A stretch of 48,212 nucleotides of DNA from Rhodanobacteraceae bacterium (GTDB taxonomy: Bacteria > Pseudomonadota > Gammaproteobacteria > Xanthomonadales > Rhodanobacteraceae). The translations under genes and the position numbers were made by a program. The stretch lies in assembly GCA_036845145.1 (NCBI GenBank), contig DAIUEL010000002.1:1-48212 (forward strand). The letters are read 5' to 3'. Shown in pieces: positions 1-35,059 of this stretch; within the stretch, counting starts at the first letter, position 1; each line of letters opens with the position of its first letter. The notes beneath the pieces were generated by a model. It made no database searches. It was not told the origin of the DNA and saw only the letters and a list, made by a program, of their open reading frames with translations.

Positions 1-621
1 TGGTCGGCGCGCTGGTTGCCGGAGCATCGCGTGCGGATCGGGGTCGGCCACGAGGTCACGGAGCTGCGGCGCGCCGAACGCGAACTCGAGCACCGCGCCA
101 ACCACGATTCACTGACCGGCCTGGTCAACCGGCACCGCCTGCAGGTGGAACTGCAAGCCGCCATCGATCGTGCGGCCGACGAGGGCGGCGGACTCGCGCT
201 CTTGTACATAGACCTGGACGGGTTCAAGCGCGTCAACGATCGTGCCGGCCATGCGGTCGGCGACCGCTTGTTGCGCGAGCTTGCCGGGCGCATGCAGCGG
301 GGCGTCCGCCAAAACGACCTGGTCGCGCGCGTCGGCGGCGACGAATTCGTGGTGCTGCTGCCCGAGTGTCACGACGTCCACGCCGCGCGGGAAATTGCCG
401 ACAGTTTGCGGGCGCGCCTTACGATGCCGTACCGGCTGCCGGAGGGGCTGTTTCAACTGGACGCGAGTATCGGCGTCGCCACGTTTCCCGCCGATGGGGC
501 CGGTGCGGAAGCTCTGCTGATGCACGCCGACAAGTCGATGTACGCCGCCAAGCATGGCGGGCGCACCCGTGTCGAAAACCTTGTCGTCGAGGAATTGAAA
601 TCAGCCACCGGGACGGCGTGA
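1..621 (+). CDS. diguanylate cyclase (GGDEF domain) C-terminal part, 5'-truncated by the window edge
   Basis: Frame 1 is open from base 1. Motifs seen: DSLTGLVNR, YIDLDGFKRVND, GGDEFVVLL (GGDEF site), SIGVATFP, ADKSMYAAKHGGR. Confidence 0.9.
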   Translation, partial: WSARWLPEHRVRIGVGHEVTELRRAERELEHRANHDSLTGLVNRHRLQVELQAAIDRAADEGGGLALLYIDLDGFKRVNDRAGHAVGDRLLRELAGRMQRGVRQNDLVARVGGDEFVVLLPECHDVHAAREIADSLRARLTMPYRLPEGLFQLDASIGVATFPADGAGAEALLMHADKSMYAAKHGGRTRVENLVVEELKSATGTA

Positions 622-768: not shown

Positions 769-909
769 TCAGTTCGAGCCAGCCTTCGGCGCGTCGCCGT
801 TCTTGGCCGCTTCGCGCTGCGCACGCTTCTTCGCGTCCTTTTCCGCCACTTTCTTTTTCTTGGCGATTTCGCGTTGACGTTTTTCAAAGGAATAGTTGGG
901 CTTGGCCAT
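769..909 (-). CDS. small Lys/Arg-rich protein, 46 aa, below the ORF-track size cutoff
   Basis: Hand translation gives ATG at 909 and TGA at 771-769: MAKPNYSFEKRQREIAKKKKVAEKDAKKRAQREAAKNGDAPKAGSN. Codon third positions are GC-rich. It resembles a small basic protein family I recall in proteobacteria; this is not verified. Confidence 0.45.
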   Translation of the reverse strand: MAKPNYSFEKRQREIAKKKKVAEKDAKKRAQREAAKNGDAPKAGSN

Positions 910-986
910 GAGCAATCCGTCTGGGCTGGAGAGTGCAGTTTAGAGAAACATGGCCGCCGGACAAACTGACTCAACGAAAACAAGGG

Positions 987-1155
987 TCAGGGCCCACTTT
1001 CCAGCGGGTCTTTGATTCCTTGAGCGTGACCCAGGTTGGCGCGTGATCGCTCGTGTGTTCCCGGCCGCGCATCTCCCGGTCCACGCCTGCAGATTGAAGA
1101 CGCGGTGCCGCGGCCGGACTCGAGGGAATATGATCGATCCGGGCTGGCACACTTC
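987..1155 (-). pseudogene. displaced 3'-terminal fragment of an exodeoxyribonuclease III (xthA-like) gene
   Basis: It translates to ..RIDHIPSSPAAAPRLQSAGVDREMRGREHTSDHAPTWVTLKE.. The intact Xth tail at 6240-6400 reads RIDHILLSPAAAPGLQSAGVDRDVRGWERTSDHAPTWVRLEE. A 1-nt indel shifts the last ~8 codons (KDPLESGP* in another frame vs KGPLESRP*). No N-terminal part is present. Confidence 0.7.
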
Positions 1156-1240
1156 GTACCGCGCATCGCGTACCGGGTGAGCCATTGCGCGACCGGTGCG
1201 CGCACTCGAGGAATACACGGCAGAAGAAGGATCGATGGCC

Positions 1241-2530
1241 ATGACGAGCGCAAAGGCGAAGCGGCGGATCGTTTGGGCGGCACTGGGTGCGCTCGTTGCG
1301 GGGGTGATCGTCATCATCGCGATCAATCTGTGGCCGCACGAGCAGCAGTTGCAGCATCGGCTGCAGCACGTCAGCGCGGTGGACAGCGTGCAGTTCCGGC
1401 GCGAGATCGGAACGCTGCTGGGTGCCAGCGTCACCGAAGGCAACGCCGTGGCCGACTACCAGAATGGCGCGGAGTACTTTCCGGCCATGTTGGCGGCCAT
1501 TCGCGGCGCGCAACGCAGCGTCAACATGGAAACCTACATCTACTGGTCCGGCGACATCGCCAGAAAATTTGCCGACGCCTTGATCGAACGCGCCCGCGCC
1601 GGGGTGAAAGTGCACGTGCTGGCCGACTGGGCCGGATCCTCGAAAATGAAGCGATCACTGGTTGAACGCATGCGCGCCGGTGGCGTCCGCTTCGAGTACT
1701 TCCACCCGCTGCATTGGTATTCGCTCGACCGGATCAACAACCGCACGCATCGCAAGCTGCTGATCGTCGATGGCAAGGTCGCTTTCAATGGCGGAGCCGG
1801 AATAGCGGACGCGTGGAATGGCAATGCCACCCGGCCGGATCAGTGGCGCGACATGGAATTTCGGGTGGAGGGCCCCGTTGCGGCGCAGATGCAGGCGATT
1901 TTCGCGGACAACTGGCTGGCCACCACCGGCGAAGTCTTGCTGGGCGACGCTTACTACCCGGACGCGCCGCGGGCCGGCAACACCGCGGTGCAGGCATTTG
2001 CCAGTTCGCCCGATGGCGGCAGCGTCAACATGCAGTTGCTGTACCTGATGGCGATCAACGGCGCGCGGCACAGCATTGACCTGGAAGCCGCGTACTTCGT
2101 CCCCGACGACTTGACCCGGACCGCACTGCTCGATGCGTTGCATCGTGGCGTGAAAGTGCGCATCGTCGTGCCCGGTGCGCACGTGGACAGCCCGGTCGTG
2201 CGTAATGCTTCGCGGGAGACCTGGGGCGTATTCATGCAGGCGGGCGCGCGCTTCTTCGAATTCCAACCGTCGCTGTTCCACAACAAGTTGATGGTGGTGG
2301 ACAGCTATCTGACGATCGGCGGCTCGGCCAACTTCGACGACCGCTCCTTCAAGCTCAACGACGAATCCAACCTCAACATCCCCGACCGTGCGTTCGCCAC
2401 GCACATGACCGAAGTGATCGACGCCGACATCAGCCGCTCGCGCGAAGTCACGCTTGCGCAATGGCGCGATCGCCCATGGACGCGACGCGTGGCCGACTGG
2501 CTGTCGACGCTGGGTGCGTCGCAGCTCTGA
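1241..2530 (+). CDS. phospholipase D / cardiolipin synthase family protein with N-terminal membrane anchor
   Basis: Two HKD motifs: HRKLLIVDGKVAFNGGAGIAD and HNKLMVVDSYLTIGGSANFDDRS. TM segment IVWAALGALVAGVIVIIAINLW. AAGGA lies 9 nt before the ATG at 1241; the in-frame ATG at 1235 is an alternative start. Confidence 0.85.
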   Translation: MTSAKAKRRIVWAALGALVAGVIVIIAINLWPHEQQLQHRLQHVSAVDSVQFRREIGTLLGASVTEGNAVADYQNGAEYFPAMLAAIRGAQRSVNMETYIYWSGDIARKFADALIERARAGVKVHVLADWAGSSKMKRSLVERMRAGGVRFEYFHPLHWYSLDRINNRTHRKLLIVDGKVAFNGGAGIADAWNGNATRPDQWRDMEFRVEGPVAAQMQAIFADNWLATTGEVLLGDAYYPDAPRAGNTAVQAFASSPDGGSVNMQLLYLMAINGARHSIDLEAAYFVPDDLTRTALLDALHRGVKVRIVVPGAHVDSPVVRNASRETWGVFMQAGARFFEFQPSLFHNKLMVVDSYLTIGGSANFDDRSFKLNDESNLNIPDRAFATHMTEVIDADISRSREVTLAQWRDRPWTRRVADWLSTLGASQL

Positions 2531-2588
2531 AGGCGGAAACGGAAACAGGGAAGCCAGGGTCGGAGCGAGTGCGAATCGAGATTCGCCA

Positions 2589-2753
2589 TCAGGATGAGCC
2601 GCGTACGAAGTGATTCTCGCGCCGCGTGATTTCGCGCAAGTCCTGCAGGTAGCGGATGTGATCGATCTCTGCGAAGAAGCGCGGGCGGCGAGCATTGCCA
2701 CGCTGGATCACGTGCCGTGCGATGCCGGGGCCGAGCCGGTGGCGACGGGGCAT
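2589..2753 (-). pseudogene. N-terminal ~54-aa fragment of a REP-associated tyrosine transposase (RAYT, IS200/IS605 Y1 family)
   Basis: MPRRHRLGPGIARHVIQRGNARRPRFFAEIDHIRYLQDLREI matches the conserved RAYT N-terminus (..HV.QRGN.R...FF...DY..YL..L). The ORF then stops before the HUH and Tyr catalytic regions. Confidence 0.55.
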
Positions 2754-3250
2754 GGTCGCGATCCTTGCAAGACGGTGCGGCATTCTCGCTGTCGCGCGCA
2801 CGCTGGTCCCCGAGGTCGCCGGGAACGTCCGTCGGGAAAAGTCGATTCTGATCCCGCGGTTTAACAAAAAATACAGTAATTCAAAGAAGGCTTGACACGC
2901 TTCCGTCGGGCGATCATGTTACGAAAATTCCGGCAACGGCAAGGAGGCATTATCGGAGTGGAGACGGGAATTACTTGGTTTTCCGTCTGGACGTCGAAAT
3001 ATTCTGCATGGCGAAACTGCGTCGCAAAAGTGACGTCATAGAGAGTTGTCGCCGCAATGCATGCCCTTGCCTTGAACTCATGGTTTCATCCTTGGTCGGG
3101 CCCGGTTCCTGTGCTTTCGGAGGCGGGCGTTACTCAATAGACGCAAAGCGTTTCAAATAGCTGAAGGCAGCGTCCCGGTCCATGCGTGAAGATGCGATGC
3201 CTATTGCAGCACCCGGGATATGTCAGTGACGTAACCTGAGGACGGCGGCC

Positions 3251-4171
3251 GTGCATTTGCTGCTGGGTGATCCGCAAGCTCCTTTCTGTTTGCGAGTTCG
3301 CGCCGTGTTGGAGTCGCGCAACTTCGCGACCCATGTCATGGCGAACCCATTGGTGCATCCATCGCGTTTTGCATGGCGATTGGATAATGGGCAATCCGCC
3401 ACCCGACTTGCCTGGGATGGCGGGCCGTCGATTCGTAACGAAGACATCTCCGGTGTGCTGGTAACCGGCACGGCGTGGATTGATCCCGCCGGTTGGCAGC
3501 CCGATGACCTGGCCTACGTGTACGCAGAGACGCAGGCAGCGCTGCTGGCATGGTTGTGGAGTCTTGATTGCCCGGTGGTCAACCGCTTTGCGGCTGCGAT
3601 TTGGCATCGCCCCAAAATTCCGTTCCTGTTCTGGCACCGGCTGTTGCGGCGCTGTGGTCTTCCGACGCCGGACACATTGGTAACCAACGTGGCGCGGGAG
3701 GCCCGGGCGTTCGGGGATCGTCTTGGCCAGGAAAACATGGCGGGTGTTGTCTATGGGCCACTCACCAGCGACATACGTTACTTGGTATCCAGCGACCAGG
3801 ACTGGAACGGCATGGCCGCACTACAGCGCTACGCGCCGGTTTGCCTGGCGCATCCACACGGAGCGGTACAACTGGTCTGTGTGGTGGGTGAGCAGGTGGT
3901 GTGGGAAGGGGAGCCGCCTCCCGAAATGACCCCGCTTGAACCGGCCTTGCGTCGATTCGCGGCGGCGGCGGGTTTGACTTTCGTGGAGATGGCTTTTGCT
4001 CCGGCCTCGGACGGTCACATTTGCGTCGTGGCCGTCGAGCCCCATCCCAACTTCGAACGCTTCGGAGATATCGCCCAAGAGCAGATCGTGGAGGGAATAG
4101 TGCGTTCCATTACGGAAGCACCGCGCGCCCGCAAGGGTTCCGTGCAATCAAGGCAATCGAGCTTCGCATGA
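3251..4171 (+). CDS. ATP-grasp-like protein, degenerate paralog of the downstream ligase
   Basis: GTG start preceded by GAGGA. It is colinear with the next ORF by eye: HLLLGDP/ILVCGGL, CPVVNRF/CPVVNRL, GLPTPDTLVTN/GLLTPPTLVTN, VEPHPNF/FEINPCPGF. It has VVYGPLTS where the paralog has VIYKSLSG, lacks the VDYRY segment, and has E-x-H instead of E-x-N. Confidence 0.65.
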   Translation: MHLLLGDPQAPFCLRVRAVLESRNFATHVMANPLVHPSRFAWRLDNGQSATRLAWDGGPSIRNEDISGVLVTGTAWIDPAGWQPDDLAYVYAETQAALLAWLWSLDCPVVNRFAAAIWHRPKIPFLFWHRLLRRCGLPTPDTLVTNVAREARAFGDRLGQENMAGVVYGPLTSDIRYLVSSDQDWNGMAALQRYAPVCLAHPHGAVQLVCVVGEQVVWEGEPPPEMTPLEPALRRFAAAAGLTFVEMAFAPASDGHICVVAVEPHPNFERFGDIAQEQIVEGIVRSITEAPRARKGSVQSRQSSFA

Positions 4172-5145
4172 TTCTCGTCTGCGGTGGCTTGGCCGACAAG
4201 GTGACCGAACTGGTATGTGCGCGGTTGCTGGACTGTGGCTATCCATATCGATTGCTTGATTTGGGAGGTTATCCAACCGGATTCCAATGCAAGTGGCGCT
4301 GGCGAGACGCTGGACCCGATGGCTACATCGTCGGCCCCGATTGGAAGCTCGATCTGGACGAGCTAACGGGTGTCTATATCCGTTACCTGGGGCCGGAAGG
4401 ACGAACGCCTCCGCCCGGCGTTGCACCAGCAGACGTGCCGACGATGTATTTCGAGTATGACACCGGCCTCACAGCCTTGCTGGAGGATTTGCCCTGCCCG
4501 GTGGTCAATCGCCTCGCAGGCGGAATGTCCAACAACAGCAAGGCTTACCAGGCATTGCTGGTGCGTCAGTGTGGCCTGCTGACACCGCCTACGCTCGTTA
4601 CCAATGACCCGGAAGCGGCGCTTCGCTTTTACGACGAGTGCCAGAGCGAGGTCATCTACAAGTCGTTGAGTGGAATCCGATCGATTGTCAGGCGCGTAGA
4701 GGCCGACCAGTTGGAGCGCCTGCCTCTGTTGCGCCACGGTCCAGCCCAGTTCCAGGCGTTCATACCGGGAGAGAACGTGCGGGTGCACACTGTAGGTGAC
4801 CAGTTGTTTGCCACGCGGGTGCGTTCGAATGCGGTGGACTATCGCTACGCCAGCCGCGAAGGCCACCACGTGGAAATGGAACCCACCACGTTGCCCCCGG
4901 CTATTGCGGAATCGTGTATGCGTCTTGCGCGGCGGCTGGATCTGCTGCTGACCGGCATCGACCTCAAGGAGGATCCGGACGGCAACTATTACTGCTTCGA
5001 GATCAATCCCTGTCCGGGCTTCCTGTACTACGAACAATATACCGGTCAGCCAATCAGCACCGCACTCGCAACCCTGCTCCACAAACCTGCCCCATCCGGA
5101 TGCGAGTCGGACCACGGTGATGGGAGGAGGGTAGCCGCGCGATGA
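4168..5145 (+). CDS. MvdC/MvdD-like (RimK-type) ATP-grasp ligase
   Basis: The ATG at 4168 overlaps the upstream stop (ATGA at 4168-4171). There is a pre-ATP-grasp N-domain (MILVCGGLADKV..). Other motifs: SNNSKAYQ, VIYKSLSG (ATP-binding Lys), QAFIPGENVRVHTVG, VDYRY, YYCFEINPCPGF (Mg-binding E-x-N). Confidence 0.8.
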   Translation: MILVCGGLADKVTELVCARLLDCGYPYRLLDLGGYPTGFQCKWRWRDAGPDGYIVGPDWKLDLDELTGVYIRYLGPEGRTPPPGVAPADVPTMYFEYDTGLTALLEDLPCPVVNRLAGGMSNNSKAYQALLVRQCGLLTPPTLVTNDPEAALRFYDECQSEVIYKSLSGIRSIVRRVEADQLERLPLLRHGPAQFQAFIPGENVRVHTVGDQLFATRVRSNAVDYRYASREGHHVEMEPTTLPPAIAESCMRLARRLDLLLTGIDLKEDPDGNYYCFEINPCPGFLYYEQYTGQPISTALATLLHKPAPSGCESDHGDGRRVAAR

Positions 5146-5221
5146 ATCGCACGACCATGGCAGTCGTGCGACGGATGCACTTGAAGCGTAATCGTTACCA
5201 CAGGACAAGGAGTTCGCGATC

Positions 5222-5734
5222 ATGGCAAAGTCAAGACAAAGCACACGGGACGCCCCTGCGGCGTCCAAGCAGCCCTTCGTCTCCCAGAAAGATCGTCCCG
5301 AGATGCGGATCAATCTCGATACGCCGCTCGGCGAGCTGCGGGTCAGGGAATTGTCCGCCATCCTGGGGTTCATGACGGGCAAGAACCCCAACTTCGAAGT
5401 GGGCAAAACCTCCTTGAAGGATTTCTTCGACAAGGACTTTCCCGAGGTGGCGAAAGACTGGGTCAAGGAGCTCAAGAGCGAGAAGCTCGAAAAAAACGAG
5501 ATCAAGGACAGCAAGGGCGAGAAAACCGAGAAACTGGAAAAGCACGAAAAAAACGAGAAGAGTGAAATCAAGGAAGCCAAGGCCGAGAAGGCGGAAAATG
5601 ATGGTGTCTTCGATCCTGGAAACGTGATTCGGAGGGATCCCAGGATGGATGAAATCATCCAGGCTGTGGCGGGCTTGACCAAGCAGGTGAGTCAACTCAG
5701 CAATCAGGTGGCGGAGTTGCAAAAGAAGGGCTAG
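5222..5734 (+). CDS. 170-aa Lys/Glu-rich protein of unknown function; candidate substrate of the adjacent ATP-grasp pair
   Basis: AAGGAG lies 9 nt upstream of the ATG, and the gene starts 76 nt after the ligase gene on the same strand. The protein has a structured-looking N-region (LGELRVRELSAILGF), a central E/K tract and a C-terminal coiled-coil-like tail (IIQAVAGLTKQVSQLSNQVAELQKK). Confidence 0.7.
   Translation: MAKSRQSTRDAPAASKQPFVSQKDRPEMRINLDTPLGELRVRELSAILGFMTGKNPNFEVGKTSLKDFFDKDFPEVAKDWVKELKSEKLEKNEIKDSKGEKTEKLEKHEKNEKSEIKEAKAEKAENDGVFDPGNVIRRDPRMDEIIQAVAGLTKQVSQLSNQVAELQKKG
5453..5602 (+). repeat. period-3 (E-K-x)n tract inside the CDS (residues 78-127)
   Basis: KDWVKELKSEKLEKNEIKDSKGEKTEKLEKHEKNEKSEIKEAKAEKAEND. 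By hand count there are 15 Lys and 16 Asp/Glu in 50 residues. Lys recurs every third residue with two one-residue phase slips. The DNA is visibly A-rich (gagaag/gaaaaa units). Confidence 0.85.
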
Positions 5735-6230
5735 ACGCGAGGGACCGCGGTGTTGCACTACCTCACGGCGGTCGGCCTTGCTCCAACGATCCGGACCGGA
5801 CCTCGCCCGCGCAGACGCAACGGCTCATCGGGATGCCGTCGGGCGAGGCCTGAATTCTTCGAGTCGAAACGTGTACCCGGATCAAGACGAGCCACGCAGG
5901 CGCAACATCGTCGCATCCCTTGTCGTTGCGTTCTCTTTGAGATCCATGGTTCGCACGATCAGGAAGACCAGCGTGGCGAGCGCCAGGATCCGCATCGGGC
6001 CGCTGCGGACGACGCGCGCGCCGCGGCGGCGCGCAGCGCCGGCGGATCGGGGCGGCCGCCGCTTGCCGGGGCGGTGATCACGATTCCCAATGCGGTCAGG
6101 TCGTGATGACGATGCCGACAACCAGTCCGCGCTGTGTTGAGTCGATGGCTGGCGCTGCCGAGGACACGGGCTCGTGCATATGGAACCAACAGGAGACGGA
6201 GACAATCGATCTGGAAAAAGGGGGCGCGGA

Positions 6231-6404
6231 AAACACGGGTCAGGGCCGACTTTCCAGCGGCCCTTTGGTTTCTTCGAGCCTGACCCAGGTCGGCGCGTGA
6301 TCGCTGGTGCGTTCCCAGCCGCGCACATCCCGGTCCACGCCTGCCGATTGAAGGCCCGGTGCTGCGGCGGGACTCAGCAGAATGTGGTCGATCCGCAGCC
6401 CGGC
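6231..6404. repeat. right copy of a ~175-bp diverged direct repeat (3' end of intact xthA plus ~9 nt past the stop); the left copy is 977-1155
   Basis: Same-orientation alignment by eye: aaaaca[a/c]gggtcagggcc..ccaggt[t/c]ggcgcgtgatcgct..cccggtccacgcctgc..gattgaag..gatcc. Identity is roughly 80-85% with one 1-nt indel. Confidence 0.7.
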
Positions 6405-7040
6405 ATCGCGCGCAAACGCGTTGCGCAGGTACTTCCAGAACGTGTAGACGCGCTCGTCCGGATGCAGCGCGCGAAGCGTGTCGGTCCAGCCCTGCGCCAA
6501 CAAGTCGCGGTATGCCGCGCGCACCTCGGGACGAAACAGCGCGTCGTCCACCCAGCGTTCCGGCGCGTAAACATCCAGTTCTTCCGGGATCACGTTGAAG
6601 TCCCCGGCCAGCGCGACGGGCATGCCGGAATCGAGAAGATCGCGCGCATGGTCCGCAAGTCGTTGGAACCAGCGCAGCTTGTAGTCGAATTTCGGACCGG
6701 GAGCAGGGTTGCCGTTGGGCAGGTAGAGGCACCCGATGACCATTCCACCCACTTCCGCTTCGAGGTATCGGCTTTGCACGTCATCCGGATCGCCGGCCAA
6801 AGCCCGCCTGCGTTCCACGGGATCGCAACCCTTGCCCAGGATCGCAACGCCATTCCAGCTCTTCTGCCCGTGCCACACTGCGCCATAGCCGGCGTCATGG
6901 AGGGCGGCGGCGGGAAACTGCTCCTGCGGCGCCTTGAGTTCCTGAAGGCAAACGATGTCCGGCAACTGCTCCTCGAGCCAGCGAAGCAGCAAAGGCAACC
7001 GCGCGCGAATGCCGTTGACGTTGTAGGTGGCGATTTTCAT
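6240..7040 (-). CDS. xthA: exodeoxyribonuclease III
   Basis: MKIATYNVNGIRARLP, DIVCLQELK, GDFNVIPEE, RIDHILLS and SDHAPTWV are all present. The length (266 aa) is typical. Confidence 0.95.
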   Translation of the reverse strand: MKIATYNVNGIRARLPLLLRWLEEQLPDIVCLQELKAPQEQFPAAALHDAGYGAVWHGQKSWNGVAILGKGCDPVERRRALAGDPDDVQSRYLEAEVGGMVIGCLYLPNGNPAPGPKFDYKLRWFQRLADHARDLLDSGMPVALAGDFNVIPEELDVYAPERWVDDALFRPEVRAAYRDLLAQGWTDTLRALHPDERVYTFWKYLRNAFARDAGLRIDHILLSPAAAPGLQSAGVDRDVRGWERTSDHAPTWVRLEETKGPLESRP

Positions 7041-7065
7041 TGTTCAAAAACGTGGACGGACCCAG

Positions 7066-7567
7066 TCAAGTTCCGAGCTGCGCCAGTGCCCTTTTCAGCA
7101 ATGCGTCGTAAAGCTCCACCCGCAATCGCAAATTGACCAGCAGCACAGACATCCAGTAGAAGAATGCCAGCAAACCGAACAGCACGATTTGCCACCAACT
7201 GATTTGTAGCGGCCAGCTTGCATCCTTGAACTGAATGCCGATGGCGGCGAGCACAGGCAGGGCGCCGAGCTTGTCGATGCTGCCGATGAACACCGGCATC
7301 TTGCTGCGGTACCGATCGAGGCGATGAGGCGCGTAGTTCGCTCAGGGCGTGCAGACAGTCGCGTGGAAATGACCGTAGCCACGCGACGAGGCTTTGGTAG
7401 TGCAGCATGTCGAAATCCATGTCGCTTACCGCTTCGCGTCCCTGGCGGCCAGGCATCATTGCCTGGATGCTGGGGAGGGTCGCGCGCGCACTGAGAATCA
7501 GCCCGGCGATCTCGACAAGCCGAAGCGCCGCCGACACGGCCACGACCCATGGTCGGGGAGGCAGCAC
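7066..7567 (-). pseudogene. membrane protein of unknown function with an apparent frameshift near 7340
   Basis: Codon bias is good in one frame from a GTG at 7567 (VLPPRPWVVAVSAALRLVEIAGLILSA..MLHYQSLVAWLRSFPRDCLHALS). It then continues in another frame (ANYAPHRLDRYRSKMPVFIGSIDKLGALPVLAAIGIQF..WWQIVLFGLLAFFYWMSVLLV..) down to the stop at 7066. Sequencing error cannot be excluded. Confidence 0.4.
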
Positions 7568-7664
7568 GATGCGTAAACGCAATGCGCCACATAACGTAAC
7601 GCAAAGCGGTGCGGAAAGTCGGATCGGGCTGTCATCAGTGCGCGGATAACCGGCCGTGCTTGGT

Positions 7665-8279
7665 TTACTCGAACGATCCGGTTCGCACCTCGCCTTCACG
7701 GGCGTAGCGAGTGACGACCACGCCCTTGGGCGTGGCTTTCGACTCTTCGGGGCGGAACGCGCACGGCCGCGAGCCATCGTCGAACAGGCGCTTGCCGCGG
7801 CCGAGCAGGATGGGATAGACCAGCAGAAGCAGTTCGTCGACCAGATCGGTGGCCAGCAACTGGTGGACCAGATCGCTGCTGCCTTGCGTTACCAGGTCGG
7901 GGCCGTCGTTGCGCTTGAGTTCGCGTACTGTCGCGACGACGTCCGGTCCCAGCGCGCGGCTGTTCTGCCATGCGAGCGTATCGGGATGATGGGTGGCGAC
8001 GTGTTTGGTGGTCCCGTTGAATGCGTCGGCGATGCCGCGATGCGGCGCGTCTTCCGCCACGTGCGGCCAGTATGCGGCGAAGATGTCGTAGGTGCGGCGT
8101 CCGAGCAGCAACTCGAACGGCCGCTCGAATACGCCGCCCATTACTTCGTCGGTTTCGTCGGCGTACGGCCACACCCATCCGCCGTGGACGAAGCCACCGC
8201 TGGTGTCTTCCTGCGGTCCCCCGGGCGCCTGCATCACGCCATCGAGGCTGATGAACGCCGGGACGATGAGTTTGCGCAT
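7665..8279 (-). CDS. dihydrofolate reductase family protein (RibD C-terminal domain type)
   Basis: Motifs FISLDGVMQAPGGP, LLLGRRTYDIFAAYWP, GSSDLVHQLL and LLLVYPILLGRGKRLF. Length 204 aa. Confidence 0.9.
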   Translation of the reverse strand: MRKLIVPAFISLDGVMQAPGGPQEDTSGGFVHGGWVWPYADETDEVMGGVFERPFELLLGRRTYDIFAAYWPHVAEDAPHRGIADAFNGTTKHVATHHPDTLAWQNSRALGPDVVATVRELKRNDGPDLVTQGSSDLVHQLLATDLVDELLLLVYPILLGRGKRLFDDGSRPCAFRPEESKATPKGVVVTRYAREGEVRTGSFE

Positions 8280-8549
8280 GTCGGTGCTCCTCTACGATCG
8301 GATGTGCCACTTGGAAGGGCGACGATTGGCGGACCGTAGGATCGACAACGGCCGGATCGCATTCGCTCGAATCCATCGTTGGCGGAAATCCGAGTGGGCG
8401 GCGCCGGTCTTGTGGACGATGCAAGTTTGCCGACGTGCGGCCGGGCTTCCGCTCAGGCCTCGTTCATGGCAACGGCCCTATGCCGAACAGTAATGAAGGA
8501 GATCACGGTCCAGGCTGGACAGGGCAGGGCGGCGCAGGTGCGTCGCGGC

Positions 8550-9878
8550 ATGTTGCGCTTCCTGCCGGGGTTCTTCGCGATCGCGGTGCTGCTGGCACTC
8601 GCAGGCTGCGGGGCCAACGCGACCTTGCCGATCAAGACGCAGATGGGGACGAGTCCGCCGTTGCCGCCGCCCAATCCAGAAACGATCCCGACCGTGGACA
8701 TCGCCCCGGCCGAGGGCTGGAGCGCCGACATCAAACCAATAGCGGCACCGGGTTTCGAGGTCAGTGCTTTCGCGCGCGGTCTCGATCATCCGCGCTGGCT
8801 GTACGTGCTGCCGAATGGCGACGTGCTGGTTGCCGAGAGCAATGCCCCGGCCGAAGCGAAGGGCCTGGGCGGCCTGAAGGGCTGGGCGATGAAGCGGGTG
8901 ATGAAGCGCGCCGGTGCCGGCGTACCGAGTCCGGACCGCATCGTGCTGTTGCGCGACAGCGACGGCGACGGCGTCGCGGACGTCCGCAGCGTGTTCCTGG
9001 ATCACTTGCACTCGCCGTTCGGCATGGTGTTGCTGAAGGGATCGCTGTACATCGCCGACACCGATGCGCTGCTGCGCTTTCCGTATCGCGATGGCGAAAC
9101 GTCGATCACGGCACGCGCGGAGAAGGTGACCGACCTGCCCGCGGGCACGATCAACTACCACTGGACGAAGAACGTCGTGGCGGGGCCGAAGGGTGACCTG
9201 TTGTATGTCTCGATCGGATCGAACAGCAATGTCGGTGACCATGGCATGGCGGCGGAAGAGGGCCGCGCCCGCATCGTCGAGGTCGATCCCGCAACGGGCG
9301 ACAAGCGCATGTTCGCGTTCGGCATGCGCAATCCCGTCGGCATGGCCGTGCAGCCGGGAACGGACGCGCTGTGGGCTGTCGTCAACGAGCGCGACGAACT
9401 GGGCGGGGATCTCGTGCCCGATTACCTGACGCGCGTGACGCCCGGCGGTTTTTACGGCTGGCCGTACAGTTATTTCGGCCAGCACGTGGATCCCAGGGTG
9501 AAGCCGCAGCGTCCGGATCTCGTGGCGCGCGCGATCGTCCCCGATTACGCGCTCGGCTCGCACGTGGCGGCGCTGGGCCTTGCGTTTTACACCGGCGATC
9601 TTTTCCCGGCGCGCTACCGCGGCGGCGTGTTCATCGGCGAGCACGGCTCGTGGAACCGGCGTCCGCGCAGCGGCTACAAGGTCGTGTTCGTGCCGTTCGT
9701 CGACGCCAAGCCGGCCGGTCCGCCGGAAGACATCCTGACGGGATTTGTCGCTGCCGATGGCAAGGCGCGCGGGCGTCCGGTTGGTGTCGCCATCGATCAT
9801 GCCGGCGCGCTGCTGGTCGCCGACGATGTCGGCAACGTGGTCTGGCGCGTCACGCCGACGGCGCATGGCGGCGATTGA
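8550..9878 (+). CDS. PQQ-dependent sugar (sorbosone/glucose) dehydrogenase family lipoprotein
   Basis: Motifs RWLYVLPNGDVLVAE, GSNSNVGDHG, FAFGMRNPVGMA, GGFYGWPYSY and GEHGSWNR. The start at 8550 gives a lipoprotein signal (MLRFLPGFFAIAVLLALAGC). In-frame alternatives are at 8493 and 8379. Confidence 0.85.
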   Translation: MLRFLPGFFAIAVLLALAGCGANATLPIKTQMGTSPPLPPPNPETIPTVDIAPAEGWSADIKPIAAPGFEVSAFARGLDHPRWLYVLPNGDVLVAESNAPAEAKGLGGLKGWAMKRVMKRAGAGVPSPDRIVLLRDSDGDGVADVRSVFLDHLHSPFGMVLLKGSLYIADTDALLRFPYRDGETSITARAEKVTDLPAGTINYHWTKNVVAGPKGDLLYVSIGSNSNVGDHGMAAEEGRARIVEVDPATGDKRMFAFGMRNPVGMAVQPGTDALWAVVNERDELGGDLVPDYLTRVTPGGFYGWPYSYFGQHVDPRVKPQRPDLVARAIVPDYALGSHVAALGLAFYTGDLFPARYRGGVFIGEHGSWNRRPRSGYKVVFVPFVDAKPAGPPEDILTGFVAADGKARGRPVGVAIDHAGALLVADDVGNVVWRVTPTAHGGD

Positions 9879-10107
9879 GGTACGCGTCGAACGGGGCTCA
9901 CGCTCCAGGCTTCGGACCCGGACCACATACGCACTGGTGCCGCGCAGTCCGCGCGGGCGCAGCGCACCTGGCCCGAGATTTCAGAAACTTTCAGATTTTT
10001 TGCAGGACTCGCCGATCCTTCCCGGCCATGGTGCCTGAACCGCCGGAGGGGTCTGGCGGTGGTGCCCATCGGGCACGCGCCTCCATCCACTTTCAGGAAG
10101 AACGGCA

Positions 10108-11385
10108 ATGTCCAGATCGCCAACGACAGTCGGAAACCGTTTGCGTGTTTCGGGTTGCGCGCAGGAAGGCGTTGGAAAACGACCTTCGCCTGCGGCGAGG
10201 TTGTGGGCGCGCCTGACGCGCCGCCGCGGCGCCTTCGTTGCTGCCCTGGCGCTGGCTACAGGCGCGACCACGCCTGCGACCGCATTCGCGCAGGCCCAGT
10301 GCACGCCGATCCTCAGCGGGCTGCGTTTGCCGGTGGCCAGCCTCATGACCCATCAGGGCCATCTGCTGATCGCGGAATCCGGAGACGGCACCGCCGGTTC
10401 CGGCCGGATTTCCATCCTCGACAAGGACGGGACCCTGCGCACGCTGCTCCGGGGATTGCCATCCGGCCCGGCCGACGTTGGCACGCCCTCCGGTCCCAGC
10501 GGGATATTCATGCGGGGACGCAGCCTGTATCTCGCGATGGGGACCGGCGACACGGGAATCCTGGGACCGCGCCCCGGCACGACGCTGGTCAATCCGAACG
10601 GGCCCTCCTCGCCGATCTTCAGCTCGGTACTGGCGATCAGCTTCACTCCGGGCGCGGAGATGCAGACGACCGGATTCACCATGACCCGGGCCAACCAGCA
10701 GGCGCTCGCCAACGGCCAGTTCGTGATGCTGACCGACAGCCGCGGCTACGTGATGGTCATCCGCATGCTGACGAATTTCCCCGAGTACGTGGCGTCGCCG
10801 CTGCCGGATGTACCCGACAACATCAGCCTTTCGAACCCGTTCGGCATCGTTGGATTTGGACGATGGCTCTTCGTCACCGACGGCGGACGCAACCTCGCGT
10901 GGAAGGTCGATGCGTTGAACGGTGCACAGACGGAATTCGTCAGCTACCCGAACGTACCTAACCCGATGTTCCCGGCCGTCGGCGGACCGTCCATCCAGGC
11001 CGTGCCGACCGGCATTACCGAGTGGCGGGGCAAGTTGCTGTTGGCACGGTTCACCGGCGCGCCGTTCGCGACCGGCGTTTCCAGCATCGAACGGATCGAT
11101 CCGGTCACCGGCGAAGATACGCGCCTGATCTCCAACCTCACGACGGCGATCGGCACGATTCCGTTGCGCCAGGGACACCAGCCGCTGCTGGTGCTGGAGA
11201 TGGCCGCCAGCGGGCCGTTCTTCAGCGGGCCCGGCACGATATTGAAGTTCGATGATCCGGCGGGTGCACCGACCACGGTCGCGAGCTGCCTGGTCGGGCC
11301 CACGTCGATGACGTACGACCGCTCGACCCATACGCTGTATGTCACCGAGGAAGAAGGCAACCTCGTAAGCGTTCCGTATCCGTAA
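10108..11385 (+). CDS. secreted beta-propeller-like protein (ScyD/ScyE-like) with Tat-type signal
   Basis: AGGAAG precedes the ATG. A twin-arginine signal is present: RLTRRRGAFVAALALATGATTPATAFA. Repeated Gly/Pro-rich strand motifs follow. The family assignment is from memory only. Confidence 0.7.
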   Translation: MSRSPTTVGNRLRVSGCAQEGVGKRPSPAARLWARLTRRRGAFVAALALATGATTPATAFAQAQCTPILSGLRLPVASLMTHQGHLLIAESGDGTAGSGRISILDKDGTLRTLLRGLPSGPADVGTPSGPSGIFMRGRSLYLAMGTGDTGILGPRPGTTLVNPNGPSSPIFSSVLAISFTPGAEMQTTGFTMTRANQQALANGQFVMLTDSRGYVMVIRMLTNFPEYVASPLPDVPDNISLSNPFGIVGFGRWLFVTDGGRNLAWKVDALNGAQTEFVSYPNVPNPMFPAVGGPSIQAVPTGITEWRGKLLLARFTGAPFATGVSSIERIDPVTGEDTRLISNLTTAIGTIPLRQGHQPLLVLEMAASGPFFSGPGTILKFDDPAGAPTTVASCLVGPTSMTYDRSTHTLYVTEEEGNLVSVPYP

Positions 11386-11402
11386 GCCGGCAACCCAAGC
11401 GG

Positions 11403-11429
11403 GAACCGGGCCAGGGACGGGCCCGGTTC
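11403..11429. terminator. GC-rich hairpin between convergent genes
   Basis: gaaccgggcc-agggacg-ggcccggttc forms a 10-bp perfect stem. It lies 18 nt after the + strand stop at 11385 and upstream of the - strand stop at 11645. No clear U-tract. Confidence 0.45.
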
Positions 11430-11644
11430 GGAGAGGATCGCTTCCATCGACTGCCAGCTTGGACGGCGTGGCGTCGAATGCGAACTACGGGATTCCGTGC
11501 GCGTCGGCGGCGGTGAATTGCATCTGCTCCATCAGTGCACGGAAGCGTGGATGTGGGCGCAGGTTGTTTCAGCGCGCTTCAATTCGAATGAGGGTTATGC
11601 GCACGTTGGCAAGTGGCGACGTGCGGTGTCGAGGAGGAGGCGCG

Positions 11645-33228: not shown

Positions 33229-33663
33229 TCACGCGCCGTGGCTTCGCGCCCACTGCACGATGCCCGGGGCATTCATGGCGCCTGCTTGGCGCGCGATTTC
33301 GCGGCCGCCGCGGAACAGCGCGAGTGTCGGAATGCTGCGGATGTCGTAGCGCGCGCCGAGCGATTGTTGCGCGTCGGTGTCGACCTTCAGCAGGCGCACA
33401 CGCGGCTCCAATTGTGCCGCGGCCTTCACGAATTCCGGCGCCATCATCCTGCACGGTCCGCACCACGGCGCCCAGAAATCGACCAGCACCGGGACCTCAT
33501 CGTGTGAAAGGTGTTTCTGGAACGCGGCATCGTTCACTTCCACCGGCTTGCCGTCGAACAATGGTCGATGGCAGTTGCCGCAATTCGGCGTGTCCGATCG
33601 CTCGCGCGGCACGCGGTTCACCGCTGCGCAGTGCGGACACACGATGTGCGATGCGTTACTCAT
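33229..33663 (-). CDS. trxC: thioredoxin 2 (zinc-finger thioredoxin)
   Basis: N-terminal CPHC..CGNC zinc finger followed by the WCGPC thioredoxin domain. Length 144 aa. Confidence 0.9.
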   Translation of the reverse strand: MSNASHIVCPHCAAVNRVPRERSDTPNCGNCHRPLFDGKPVEVNDAAFQKHLSHDEVPVLVDFWAPWCGPCRMMAPEFVKAAAQLEPRVRLLKVDTDAQQSLGARYDIRSIPTLALFRGGREIARQAGAMNAPGIVQWARSHGA

Positions 33664-34790
33664 GATGAAGCCCTTCCATTGTCGTCGGCGGACGGTTCGC
33701 CGGCCGTCGTGCTGGAAGCATAGTCCGCCGCCGCATGGATCATCGAGTTGGCGGTCGCGATGACGGGCACAGCGAAGAATGCCCCGGCGATACCGCCGAT
33801 GGCCGCGCCCGCCATCACGCCAAGCACGATCCCTAGCGGATGCACCTTGACTGCGCCACCGGTGATCAGGGGATGCAGGACGTTGCCCTCGATCTGGTTC
33901 ACCAGCAGCACGATGCCGAACATGATCAGCGCGTTGATCCAGCCGTTGAACAGCAGTGCGATGAGCACCGCCACCGCGCCCGCCACGATCGATCCGATGA
34001 TGGGCACCAGTGCGCCGAAGAACACGATGGCCGCGATCGGCGTCGCCAGCGGCACGCCGATGATCCACGCGCCGGATCCGATCGCGACCGCTTCGAGTGC
34101 GGCCACGAAGATCTGGATGCGAACGAATTCCTTGAGGGTGCGCCAGCCCGCGCGCCCGGCGAAATCGATGCGCGCACGGGCGCGGTGTGGAAACAACCGC
34201 GTGGTCCAGGCCCAGATCCCGGCGCCGTCGATCATCGCGAACAGGGTCACGAAGATGATGATGAAGATGCCTTCGAGAAGGCCCACCACGCGTTTGCCCA
34301 CGTTGGCCGCGCGCAACGCGATCTGCGAGGCGTTGTTTTGCAGCCACTGGACGATATCCGAGACGTAGCCATTGATCTTTTCGGGTGTCAGTCCGAACGG
34401 ATGCGTCGCGAGCAGGCGGTTGAGCGAGTTGCCGAGCGCGCCGATCTGTTTTTCCAATACAGGCAGCGCGGTCACCACCCGCTCGGTGACCAGCAGCAGC
34501 AAGCCGACCACCACCGCGATCCCGATCAGCAGCGCAACCAGGATGGCGAGCCACTTCGGCCAGCCGTGACGCTGCAGGACATCCGACAGTGGTACCAGCA
34601 ACGCCGCCACGATGATGCCGATCAGGAACGGAATCACGATTTCCGCGAGCAGGTGCGCGAGGAATCCGATGCCCGCGAGCGCGGCGGCGATCACGAGCAG
34701 GCGCCACGTGAACGCGGCGCCGATGCGCAGCCCGTGCGGAACGGCTTCGTCGGCCGGATCGCTGGAACGTGCGTGCCACCTCGAACTCAC
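33660..34790 (-). CDS. AI-2E family transporter (PerM/YhhT-like permease)
   Basis: Eight or so TM segments and the characteristic Gly-rich C-terminal helices (ITGGAVKVHPLGIVLGVMAGAAIGGIAGAFFAVP). The stop overlaps the trxC start (ATGA at 33660-33663). Confidence 0.88.
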   Translation of the reverse strand: MSSRWHARSSDPADEAVPHGLRIGAAFTWRLLVIAAALAGIGFLAHLLAEIVIPFLIGIIVAALLVPLSDVLQRHGWPKWLAILVALLIGIAVVVGLLLLVTERVVTALPVLEKQIGALGNSLNRLLATHPFGLTPEKINGYVSDIVQWLQNNASQIALRAANVGKRVVGLLEGIFIIIFVTLFAMIDGAGIWAWTTRLFPHRARARIDFAGRAGWRTLKEFVRIQIFVAALEAVAIGSGAWIIGVPLATPIAAIVFFGALVPIIGSIVAGAVAVLIALLFNGWINALIMFGIVLLVNQIEGNVLHPLITGGAVKVHPLGIVLGVMAGAAIGGIAGAFFAVPVIATANSMIHAAADYASSTTAGEPSADDNGRASS

Positions 34791-35059
34791 ATCGGCACTC
34801 CGTGGCCGGCAACAAACGCCTTACGCGAAGGCGCAAGCCAATCGGGCGCGCTGTCTGGCGACGCCTGACGGGGCAAGGCAAGTCGGTCTACGCGCGACAA
34901 GCGGGCACAGGCTAACCACACGCGGGTCGAATTGATGTCAAGAGCGTTTCTGAGAGCCCGGGTTGGTGATCGGATCGTGACGGCGCACCACATCGGCCTT
35001 CACATGGCGTGAAACGTTCCGTGCGGATAATGAGGTCTTTGACCAAGGAGACCGGACGA

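Follow-up and report, generated by a model that had tools for sequence, protein, structure and literature searches.

A duplicated xthA 3′ end in a Rhodanobacteraceae genome, a probable scar between two alternative gene orders

In a contig of a Rhodanobacteraceae bacterium (DAIUEL010000002.1; the window analyzed here is its stretch of 48,212 nt from position 1), the 3′ end of the exodeoxyribonuclease III gene xthA occurs twice as a direct repeat, and the copy separated from the gene is a decaying pseudogene fragment. We consider it likely, with a probability of roughly 0.6, that the two ends are a scar where two alternative gene orders were joined by non-site-specific recombination, and not the edges of an island. 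The DNA between the copies is composite in content, the ATP-grasp cassette within it is a separate unit, and the DNA that follows the xthA tail is variable. A sequence-only reading had taken the whole interval for a single integrative element, inserted at the xthA 3′ end, whose integrase was lost; its composite content and the lack of an integrase and of a core at its edges speak against this. The features are compiled in Table 1.

Table 1 Features in and around the interval between the two xthA ends (window coordinates).
Feature	Position	Strand	Basis or remark
PAS-GGDEF diguanylate cyclase gene, 3′ part	16–621	+	Cut by window start; Pfam GGDEF, E 4.6e-45
Small basic ORF “basic48”, 46 aa	769–909	−	ORF list; conserved in many Xanthomonadales-like genomes
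Orphan xthA 3′ end, pseudogene fragment	976–1141	−	166 bp: last ~51 codons, stop, 11 bp; 1-bp frameshift
PLD upstream region, native	1142–1240	+	Similarity to L132 runs up to the inner edge of the orphan
Cardiolipin-synthase-like PLD gene, 429 aa	1241–2530	+	PLDc_2 and PLDc; native backbone gene
Y1 transposase N-terminal stump, IS200-like/RAYT-type, ~45 aa	2619–2753	−	tblastn
Low-GC spacer	2868–3146		GC 0.51
Mobile three-gene ATP-grasp cassette	3147–5768	+	86.8% over 2622 bp to L176 296–2905
p306, degenerate ATP-grasp paralogue	3251–4171	+	41% over 101 aa to the ligase
ATP-grasp ligase	4168–5145	+	TIGR04187, MvdD and MvdC matches, all below cut-off
p170, putative substrate, 170 aa, (KxE)n repeat run	5222–5734	+	Alignment
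Two remnants of a 430-aa gene	5878–6161 (5878–5972, 6023–6161)	−	~1.1 kb internal deletion; GC 0.66
Right repeat copy, functional xthA 3′ end	6229–6395	−	Last 51 codons of intact xthA, stop, 11 bp past the stop
xthA, exodeoxyribonuclease III, intact, 266 aa	6240–7040	−	Exo_endo_phos (Pfam); TIGR00195 241 bits, TIGR00633 231 bits, both above cut-off

Local alignment of the two copies gave 168 columns, of which 144 are identical (85.7%) and three are gap columns, with a score of 210 compared to 19.5 ± 2.9 for shuffled sequences. The pair was returned by blastn within the window with an E-value of 2e-49 and again by a repeat search, which placed the copies 5253–5254 bp (~5.25 kb) apart. Alignment statistics thus support the direct repeat previously proposed at 977–1155 and 6231–6404, but not its extension to 1155 and 6404: homology ends at 1141 and 6395, and 1141–1163 is PLD-upstream DNA. 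As had been stated, the right copy is the functional end of an intact xthA (Table 1), and the left copy is an orphan with a frameshift, reading RIDHIPSSPAAAPRLQSAGVDREMRGREHTSDHAPTWVTLKE before a 1-bp deletion shifts the frame. The longest identical run between the copies (17 bp) lies in the middle of the repeat, and their alignment shows no identical core at the edges and no att-like core. The microhomology at the inner junction, at most 1–2 bp, is uninformative as to mechanism.

An assembly artefact was ruled out as the origin of the orphan. More than 20 metagenome contigs from this species, assembled independently and matching the window at ~99% identity, were compared, and all of them carry it. 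Its own branch carries 15 changes, spread over codon positions 1, 2 and 3 as 3, 5 and 7, plus an indel, indicating neutral decay. The orphan and the intact copy share five derived sites found in no other xthA compared. The 87 other xthA loci contain neither another partial copy nor an island of this kind.

The proposed inventory of the interval, comprising a PLD-family gene, ATP-grasp genes and decayed ORF debris, was recovered, and the debris turned out to be the two ends of a 430-aa gene. Most of this content has counterparts in relatives lacking the repeat, a finding of the kind that the sequence-only reading had itself named as refuting an island. The order in the relative L132, which has neither the orphan nor the ATP-grasp genes, is xthA, 2.6 kb, PLD, DUF72; its positions 6446–7837 match window 2532–1141 at 86.7%, and its PLD orthologue is 90% identical in amino acids with a Ks of 0.52, against 0.56 for xthA. 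The PLD protein scored 264 bits against the cardiolipin synthase model TIGR04265, slightly below the cut-off of 290. The 430-aa gene follows xthA in L093 and is itself followed by DUF6164 and DUF748, likewise without an orphan; the two remnants match L093 6049–6143 and 4808–4947 at 79–80% by blastn, and tblastn detected the C-terminal 34 aa (E 6e-8) and the N-terminal 20 aa (E 5e-4). Because both genes are native in composition, occur close to xthA in relatives that lack the orphan and show a Ks equal to that of xthA, they belong to the backbone and not to the cargo of an island.

The 23-mer at 1141–1163 occurs once per genome and lies in PLD-upstream DNA common to the window and L132, where a fused DUF72 gene reads through the region as its derived C-terminal tail. 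We considered and rejected the 23-mer as a split DUF72 tail, since the window-type DUF72 tail is widespread and the DUF72-PLD fusion of L132 is derived.

A comparison of the composition of the interval with that of its flanks had been suggested. A deviation was found for the ATP-grasp genes (GC 0.59, GC3 0.67–0.75, neighboring genes 0.80–0.85) and for the spacer upstream of them, the low-GC stretch noted before, and for nothing else between the copies; PLD has a GC3 of 0.83, as in the flanks, and the debris is native-like as well. The ORF previously called a truncated RAYT is plausible as such: the stump is 47.8% identical (tblastn, E 6e-4) to the N-terminus of a Pseudoalteromonas ORF matching Pfam Y1_Tnp (E 7e-12), but has no Pfam match itself. 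Stump and spacer make up 612 bp missing from the relative L176, in which only ~94 bp separate the PLD stop codon from the cassette.

The region appears to have been reshuffled many times in this Rhodanobacteraceae group. The DNA after the xthA tail differs in each of L091, L093, L094, L132, L182 and the window, and similarity breaks even before the xthA stop codon, by 37 bp in L132 and 30 bp in L182. L091 and L094 share the gene order of the xthA 5′ flank (p77, RibD_C, GSDH), and basic48 and a sulfatase gene lie on this 5′ side in L094 and L132. In L093, L176 and L132, DUF6164-DUF748 is flanked by the 430-aa gene and PLD, but in the species of the window it is located beyond DUF72, and in strain L188 DUF72 and an RNA ligase gene are replaced by Peptidase_S9 and a 280-aa gene. 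The xthA gene itself is a recombination mosaic: its 5′ 480 bp are nearest to L182 and its 3′ 280 bp to L091, with exclusive shared sites of 16:3 and 4:8 for the two parts, a pattern indicating that homologous exchange does occur at this locus.

On the left side, the GGDEF gene (300 aa at full length in the conspecific contigs L083–L086 and L183), basic48 and the orphan travel together as a block of ~1.6 kb. The Ks to the L094 orthologue is 0.35 for the GGDEF gene, the same as for xthA (0.37) and GSDH (0.39), which marks the orphan-bearing block as native DNA with an altered position. We found 299 relatives of basic48 in metagenomes; its upstream neighbor differs between the window, L094, L096 and L097, and in all of them similarity ends ~55 bp upstream of the start codon. 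The GGDEF gene, a full-length Exo_endo_phos gene and the ATP-grasp genes are also present on a relative's contig, JGI 3300048101, known from gene order alone.

We propose that the stretch from DUF72 to xthA once came in two orders, one in which the GGDEF gene and basic48 adjoined the xthA 3′ end, and another running from PLD through the 430-aa gene to xthA, and that both became joined in one chromosome. No relative's sequence shows either parental order in full; the model is pieced together from overlapping parts. One end of the exchange would have used homology, in xthA or DUF72, and the other would be an illegitimate join at xthA codon ~212, beside the PLD upstream region, so that either the PLD segment entered the junction between xthA and basic48 or the orphan-basic48-GGDEF block came to lie upstream of PLD. 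The product would be a second, partial xthA end, since decayed neutrally. The ATP-grasp cassette would have entered after PLD earlier, in a separate horizontal transfer, with the transposase stump and the low-GC spacer added beside it. As to mechanism, homologous-plus-illegitimate recombination or duplication and loss would account for the arrangement.

Divergence values fit separate events. Ks between the window and its relatives ranges from 0.32 to 0.56, and is 0.36–0.47 to L176 for the ATP-grasp genes, which lie at the same site after PLD there (order PLD, trio, DUF748). The branch of the orphan carries 15–19 changes in 166 bp (0.10–0.12), a clock of 166 bp only, with a Poisson range of ~0.05–0.18 that touches Ks/2 of the closest relative (0.16). 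The orphan is therefore probably the younger of the two, although gene conversion between the xthA copies could make it look young.

Among other explanations, an intrachromosomal tandem duplication with the PLD upstream region and xthA codon ~212 as its limits, followed by complementary losses, with the orphan as the end of the first copy, is unlikely. Its junction would leave a shortened xthA end immediately ahead of the PLD upstream region, the arrangement found at 1141/1142, the two xthA copies have derived sites in common, and the changed position of DUF6164-DUF748 is a gene-order swap of this duplication-loss kind within the lineage. However, the orphan tail is followed by basic48 and the GGDEF gene instead of a second 430-aa gene region, which would require additional deletions, each stopping precisely at the xthA tail, and no ancestor with both gene sets in the required order was seen. 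It is rather doubtful that the orphan remains from another complete xthA gene, either a paralogue or a close relative's copy, between GGDEF/basic48 and the trio region, whose 5′ 635 bp were removed by deletion or by the arrival of PLD. Such a stage fits the gene order of JGI 3300048101 better than a simple 166-bp overlap does: a 99-aa gene (+), PAS-GGDEF (+), Exo_endo_phos of 287 aa (−), 543 bp, p306, ATP-grasp and p171 (+), and a 505-aa gene (−), that is, the window order with a full-length candidate xthA orthologue in the place of the orphan. The decay of the orphan also looks recent. Against this, the PLD-trio adjacency common to L176 makes PLD an unlikely late arrival, and none of the 87 loci has two xthA copies.

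We regard an integrase-dependent element spanning 1142–6228, which brought its own xthA 3′ end and displaced the native one as the orphan, as very improbable. The topology fits, one of the direct repeats belonging to the intact gene and the other being an orphan, as it would for any single-crossover insertion into xthA, which gives an orphan end, an insert and a regenerated gene end; the interval does hold the clearly foreign trio and the transposase stump, and in JGI 3300048101 the GGDEF gene abuts the 3′ end of Exo_endo_phos, close to the predicted empty site. Among 80 loci carrying basic48, none has this site, in which the small basic ORF would come right after xthA. Pfam searches revealed no integrase, excisionase or recombinase, no tRNA and no Rfam family were found, and the literature search yielded no publication that connects xthA with an att site. 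The core-less repeat edges, the native-like PLD and 430-aa genes and the absence of comparable islands from the 87 loci also argue against an element, as do the borders of the cassette, which stop 2.0 kb and 0.46 kb short of the repeats, and its divergence from L176, which exceeds the age of the orphan. Moreover, the right copy is as near to L093 (86.2%) and L094 (84.4%) as those are to each other (83.8%), so the divergence of the intact 3′ end from relatives stays within what native DNA would show.

In Escherichia coli, phage 21 and e14 integrate at the icd 3′ end, with an integrase beside the att site and a cargo absent as a unit from empty-site strains. As here, the direct repeat comprises the ~50 terminal codons of a housekeeping gene, one copy completing the gene and one being an orphan, with foreign DNA in between; here, in contrast, no integrase is present, mostly native backbone lies between the copies and no empty site was found. 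An integrase would give the same topology as seen here. Homology-facilitated illegitimate recombination and Campbell-type insertion of a relative's chromosomal DNA are known from naturally transformable bacteria and resemble the present case in their one homologous and one illegitimate end, the truncated gene copy and the merging of donor and recipient orders. Homologous exchange is independently visible in xthA here, whereas the mechanism is inferred, with hardly any junction microhomology. As at REP/RAYT rearrangement hot spots, the shuffled blocks of relatives have a palindromic REP family right at their borders, among them the xthA tail of L182; one REP arm is similar to the xthA tail, and the window has its Y1-transposase stump. 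No canonical REP copy was found in the species of the window (one chance-level match in 48 kb, with 0.7 expected), and with a transposase remnant of 45 aa no present-day REP/RAYT system can be claimed.

The cassette, in turn, is the sole clearly foreign DNA between the copies. Similarity to L176 stops at its borders with nothing beyond. The earlier proposal that the ATP-grasp module arrived by horizontal transfer is borne out by its lower GC and GC3, its absence from five relatives (L132, L093, L094, L091 and L182) and the occurrence of the same three genes at 73–81% protein identity in other phyla, which together mark the module as mobile. In L178–L181 it lies in unrelated contexts, and in Nitrospira it is accompanied by relaxase, ParB, RelE and Mrr genes. 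Graspetide (ATP-grasp RiPP) clusters include those of microviridin (MdnB/MdnC), plesiocin and corallotide, the latter with a ~22-kDa precursor containing KxxxD repeats and partner-dependent synthetases (PMC13097080; PMC8939145). The cassette resembles them in that the best family and structure matches of its ligase are graspetide maturases, the top PDB matches being graspetide ligases, and in having a further ATP-grasp-like gene as well as a neighboring protein in which Lys/Glu motifs recur. It differs in scores far below the family cut-offs (133.7 versus 350 bits), in the KxE spacing and the lack of a recognized leader in the putative 170-aa substrate, and in its unusual conservation across phyla; any cross-linking is putative. 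While the scar itself is ordinary, this graspetide-like cassette is the more interesting of the two.

The two copies of the xthA 3′ end (976-1141 and 6229-6395) lie in the same orientation at a spacing of 5253-5254 bp, as found by a repeat search of the window. Their local alignment has 144 identical among 168 columns (85.7%; 3 gap columns) and a score of 210, compared to 19.5 ± 2.9 for shuffled sequence, and blastn within the window returned the pair with an E-value of 2e-49. The sequence-only reading had described this repeat, and the similarity of the region 977-1155 to xthA is upheld by the alignment statistics; its extension to 1155 and 6404 is not, as homology ends earlier and covers 51 codons, the stop codon and 11 bp. 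The right copy was correctly recognized as the 3′ end of intact xthA and the left copy as a frameshifted orphan, which reads RIDHIPSSPAAAPRLQSAGVDREMRGREHTSDHAPTWVTLKE before the frame is broken by a 1-bp deletion. The orphan begins at xthA codon ~212 and abuts the DNA upstream of a PLD-family gene. It carries the hallmark of a scar: a 5′-truncated gene copy, fused to unrelated DNA, frameshifted and in neutral decay. We detected it in identical layout in all of more than 20 independent conspecific metagenome contigs, ~99% identical to the window, and it is therefore not an assembly artefact. Uninterrupted identity between the copies reaches 17 bp at most (1074-1090 and 6328-6344), in the middle of the repeat and not at an edge, but decay could have erased an att core. 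In the relative L091, a Rhodanobacteraceae MAG (GCA_051961995.1, JBQCCR010000040.1, ~10640), xthA has a 1-bp deletion at codon ~212 and is called at 221 aa; this is also where the orphan of the window has its inner edge, which may be an assembly error or coincidence.

Features between and around the repeat copies, and REP sites in relatives
Feature	Locus	Position	Strand	Details
PAS-GGDEF gene	window	16-621		
basic48, small basic ORF	window	769-909	-	
PLD-family gene	window	1241-2530		cardiolipin-synthase-like; TIGR04265 264 bits, just under cut-off; GC3 0.83, like rest of window
Y1 (IS200/RAYT-type) transposase stump	window	2619-2753		N-terminal-like; 45 aa
Low-GC stretch	window	2868-3146		GC 0.51
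p306	window	3251-4171	+	
ATP-grasp ligase	window	4168-5145	+	
p170	window	5222-5734	+	
Remnants of 430-aa gene (both ends)	window	5878-5972, 6023-6161		GC 0.66, native-like
xthA, exodeoxyribonuclease III	window	6240-7040	-	266 aa; TIGR00195 and TIGR00633 above cut-off
REP sites	L182	2693-2775		
REP sites	L094	3020-3035, 3349-3364, 5918-6001		
REP sites	L176	2936-2991		
REP sites	L093	several		

The DNA between the copies contains what had been listed from sequence, namely the PLD gene, a transposase stump, a low-GC stretch, two ATP-grasp-related genes with a 170-aa ORF, and ORF remnants. This segment is composite. Deviant composition is limited to 2531-5768, comprising the cassette with the ATP-grasp genes and the preceding spacer, and the PLD gene and the remnants resemble the flanks; the foreign signature sought by comparing the segment with its flanks is thus not segment-wide. 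The ATP-grasp module itself had rightly been called foreign: its cassette (3147-5768) has a GC content of 0.59 and a GC3 of 0.67-0.75, and the same trio of genes occurs in other phyla. The relative L132, which possesses neither the orphan nor the ATP-grasp genes, has a 90% identical PLD orthologue 2.6 kb downstream of xthA. Its positions 6446-7837 match window positions 2532-1141; this match begins at the PLD stop codon, includes 100 bp of DNA upstream of PLD and ends precisely where the orphan does on its inner side. The Ks of PLD (0.52) matches that of xthA (0.56). The remnants are the two ends of a 430-aa gene without a Pfam family, the full version of which lies downstream of xthA in L093 (6023-6161 and 5878-5972 match L093 4808-4947 and 6049-6143; protein-level E-values of 6e-8 and 5e-4). 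With PLD and the 430-aa gene near xthA in these orphan-less relatives, 1142-6228 does not hold as one element. Elsewhere in the window, an ORF on the minus strand (33229-34881) has a GC3 of only 0.56 and a GC1 of 0.79 and is more likely a shadow ORF, read on the wrong strand or in the wrong frame, than a gene.

The relatives were recovered through protein searches and gene-context look-ups, and close homologues of xthA and DUF72 carry the name Rhodanobacteraceae in their sources. Contigs with identical XthA or identical basic48 were set aside as they all represent the same species with the same layout, as were XthA matches in the genome collection as a source of an empty site (best only ~75% protein identity, no synteny). 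At the amino acid level, xthA of L182 is 93% identical to the window (Ks 0.32), xthA and PLD of L132 90-91% and xthA of L094, L093 and L091 86-90% (Ks 0.37-0.39, 0.42 and 0.52-0.56, respectively, the last range also holding for L132); L176 is linked through its ATP-grasp protein (91%).

Written with xthA on the plus strand, the gene order in the window's species is GSDH(-), RibD_C, p77, xthA(+), 430-aa remnants, trio(-), PLD(-), orphan(+), basic48(+), GGDEF(-), DUF72(-), RNA ligase(-), DUF6164(-), DUF748(+), PhoD(+). In L094 we found basic48, sulfatase, GGDEF, GSDH, xthA and Peptidase_S9; in L132 basic48, sulfatase, xthA, two PEP-CTERM-like ORFs, a DUF748 fragment, PLD and DUF72; and in L093 xthA, a 595-aa gene, NrsF, an ECF sigma factor, the 430-aa gene, NAGPA, DUF6164 and DUF748. 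The DNA beyond the xthA tail differs in every relative, and similarity to the window is lost 37 bp (L132) and 30 bp (L182) before the xthA stop codon. Rearrangement extends to strains: in L188, 98.6% identical, Peptidase_S9 and a 280-aa gene (8060-10360) replace DUF72 and the 2′-5′ RNA ligase beyond GGDEF (compare 9240-10860 in the conspecific L183). This Peptidase_S9 is the gene directly downstream of xthA in L094, with 89.9% DNA identity and a Ks of 0.27, below the backbone value. The more distant loci L112 (RibD_C next to basic48) and L119 (PhoD, DUF72, basic48) have no xthA or p77 remnant and were discarded as guides to the ancestral order.

The xthA gene is itself mosaic. Among the window, L182, L091, L093, L094 and L132, the 5′ 480 bp of the window's gene have their nearest match in L182 and the 3′ 280 bp in L091 (exclusive shared sites 16:3 versus 4:8), and the breakpoint near column 480 is real. 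As a pointer to an incoming copy, the mosaic is confounded by the aberrant 3′ part of L182 xthA, with 14 unique changes compared to 5 in its 5′ part.

A 23-mer at 1141-1163 was first taken for the severed 3′ end of DUF72, marking the junction of a head-to-tail duplication, because L132 translates it as the last DUF72 codons. The tails of DUF72 orthologues ruled this out. The window-type tail (...KALVADCSAS...) is common to many relatives at 83-97% identity, and the L132 type occurs in only two clusters, the second being P0249; the DUF72-PLD fusion in L132 is therefore derived. At 7812-7860 of L132, the common C-terminal tail of DUF72 has been lost and the frame continues into the PLD-upstream DNA (...AILISPRRAGTLRTV*). 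The 23-mer belongs to the region upstream of PLD.

A palindromic REP family (AAAGAACGGGGTCAGGTTCACTT / AAGTGAACCTGACCCCGTTCTT) lies at the borders of shuffled blocks in four relatives. In L182, a perfect REP palindrome sits where xthA similarity ends and replaces the last 10 codons of the gene. No canonical copy was found in the window's species, compared to 4-5 per locus in the relatives, and REP-mediated junctions in the window were rejected on these grounds and serve as no more than a lead. Moreover, a REP/RAYT system needs an intact Y1 (HUH) transposase and flanking REPs, whereas the window has only the N-terminal stump. A REP-arm-like 14-mer (GACCCGTGTTTTCC) occurs three times in tandem directly after the xthA stop codon in L094 (9366-9415), and a similar one (GACCCCGTTATTCC) twice in tandem after the REP of L176 (2975-3005); this motif forms the 11-14 bp tail common to both repeat copies in the window.

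To place the orphan in time, the 26 differences between the copies were polarised with five relatives as outgroups. Fifteen fall on the orphan branch (3, 5 and 7 at codon positions 1, 2 and 3; one an indel), seven on the branch of the intact copy, and four are ambiguous. This corresponds to neutral decay of the orphan by ~0.10-0.12 substitutions per site, with a Ks to each relative that is more than twice as high (0.16-0.28 per lineage); as this clock is built on no more than 166 bp and the top of its range reaches the lowest Ks/2, it lends support without being decisive. Both copies have five derived sites in common that are missing in L091, L093 and L094. The trio occupies the same post-PLD site in L176 with a Ks of 0.36-0.47, and in view of the lower decay of the orphan the cassette probably predates it. 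The GGDEF gene of the orphan block has a Ks to L094 of 0.35, the same as xthA and GSDH, and so this block is native DNA and not an import from a distant donor.

We consider the repeat most probably, at roughly 60%, a scar left when two gene orders of the DUF72-xthA interval recombined. Homology would have anchored one end, and an illegitimate join at xthA codon ~212, beside the region upstream of PLD, would have formed the other. Either a segment from a close relative, running from PLD through the 430-aa gene to xthA, entered a GGDEF-basic48-xthA arrangement, which would give the topology of the sequence-only reading with no integrase needed, or a block of orphan, basic48 and GGDEF was placed upstream of PLD. 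The parental order from PLD to xthA could be pieced together from L132, L176 and L093; the 3′-3′ adjacency of GGDEF and xthA was seen in one contig only (JGI 3300048101), known from gene order alone. There, the order agrees with that of the window, with GGDEF followed by a full-length Exo_endo_phos gene and then the trio. On this basis, the contig keeps alive a tandem duplication with complementary loss, which we regard as unlikely, and it would also suit an orphan that is the truncated remainder of a second xthA copy, which appears improbable.

The mechanism favored in the sequence-only reading, a fossil integrative element that had inserted at the xthA 3′ end, is not supported. Pfam and NCBIfam searches of the sizeable ORFs of 1142-6228 matched PLD, ATP-grasp or nothing, without any integrase or recombinase, and the Y1 stump is the only mobile-element trace found in this segment; tRNA and Rfam scans found nothing. 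Reuse of the target is not apparent either, as a second partial xthA copy was present at 0 of 87 xthA loci with flanks of up to 10 kb, and the proposed empty site with xthA directly upstream of basic48 at 0 of 80 basic48 loci. Our literature search returned no publication that connects xthA with an att site. At the 3′ end, intact xthA is 86.2% identical to L093 and 84.4% to L094, which are 83.8% identical to each other. Together with the finding that the segment is not absent as a whole from the orphan-less L132 and L093, the missing recombinase and target reuse make a strictly integrase-borne island very improbable.

The horizontally mobile unit is instead the 2.6-kb cassette, judging from its odd composition, its exact sharing with L176 and its recurrence in unrelated contexts. 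It is precisely the stretch common to the window and L176 (296-2905; 86.8% identity), where the PLD 3′ end precedes it and a REP pair and DUF748 follow. It stops 2.0 kb and 0.46 kb short of the repeats, and neither a recombinase nor terminal repeats are visible at its ends. In L178, the trio (9071-11537) adjoins a kdp operon, and in Nitrospira (L180, 9085-11522, and L181) it is found among relaxase, ParB, RelE/HTH, Mrr and RadC genes. MAGs named Blastocatellia, Pyrinomonadaceae, Nitrospira and Acetobacteraceae encode the ligase at 73-81% identity, so that its range comprises Acidobacteriota, Nitrospira, Alpha- and Gammaproteobacteria. A plasmid search with the ATP-grasp protein gave only distant tgmB-type matches (<36% identity). 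A defence function of the trio was rejected, as PADLOC gave no match; DrmC-like matches of the PLD protein are generic to the PLD domain, and cardiolipin synthase scores far higher.

Judged by its sequence, the ligase clearly resembles graspetide maturases, although all family scores are below cut-off (TIGR04187 133.7 bits, cut-off 350; MvdD 105.9 bits; MvdC 82.2 bits); its six best PDB matches are graspetide ligases (E-values 1e-23 to 3e-10). The p306 protein is paralogous to the ligase, but partial and degenerate. The p170 protein gave no family or structure match but is conserved across phyla, with a (KxE)n run (KSEKLEKNEIKDSKGEKTEKLEKHEKNEKSEIKEAKAEKAE) at residues ~84-125 followed by a C-terminal coiled-coil-like segment. 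By analogy to the KxxxD repeats of corallotide, p170 is a candidate for a large substrate in which Lys and Glu would be joined by isopeptide cross-links. Recent work has described large precursors with repeated Lys-acid motifs and synthetases that depend on a partner (PMC13097080). The cassette is similar to graspetide systems in its ligase matches, the partner-like paralogue and the K/E-repeat protein, and differs in scoring under the family thresholds. Tentatively, it may represent an undescribed cross-phylum mobile graspetide-like system, in which an active ligase and its partner p306 would cross-link Lys and Glu in the (KxE)n run of p170. Its entry point would have been a hot spot downstream of xthA, bordered by REPs, and recurrent breaks at this site would also have made the orphan.

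For annotation, these results call for caution: a direct repeat of a gene 3′ end around a block of foreign genes mimics a fossil integrative island, and the same topology can arise from recombination of related chromosomes with different gene orders. The two are told apart by comparison with relatives, not by topology alone. The neighbourhood of DUF72, GGDEF, basic48, xthA, PLD and DUF748 is reshuffled in every lineage sampled and REP-bounded in relatives. In this unusually plastic neighbourhood, the repeat is best read as a rearrangement scar of an ordinary kind, in itself biologically unremarkable. The item of interest is the cassette, which is the more useful lead: small, self-contained, 73-81% identical across phyla, and encoding a graspetide-type ligase, a pseudo-ligase and a K/E-repeat protein together.
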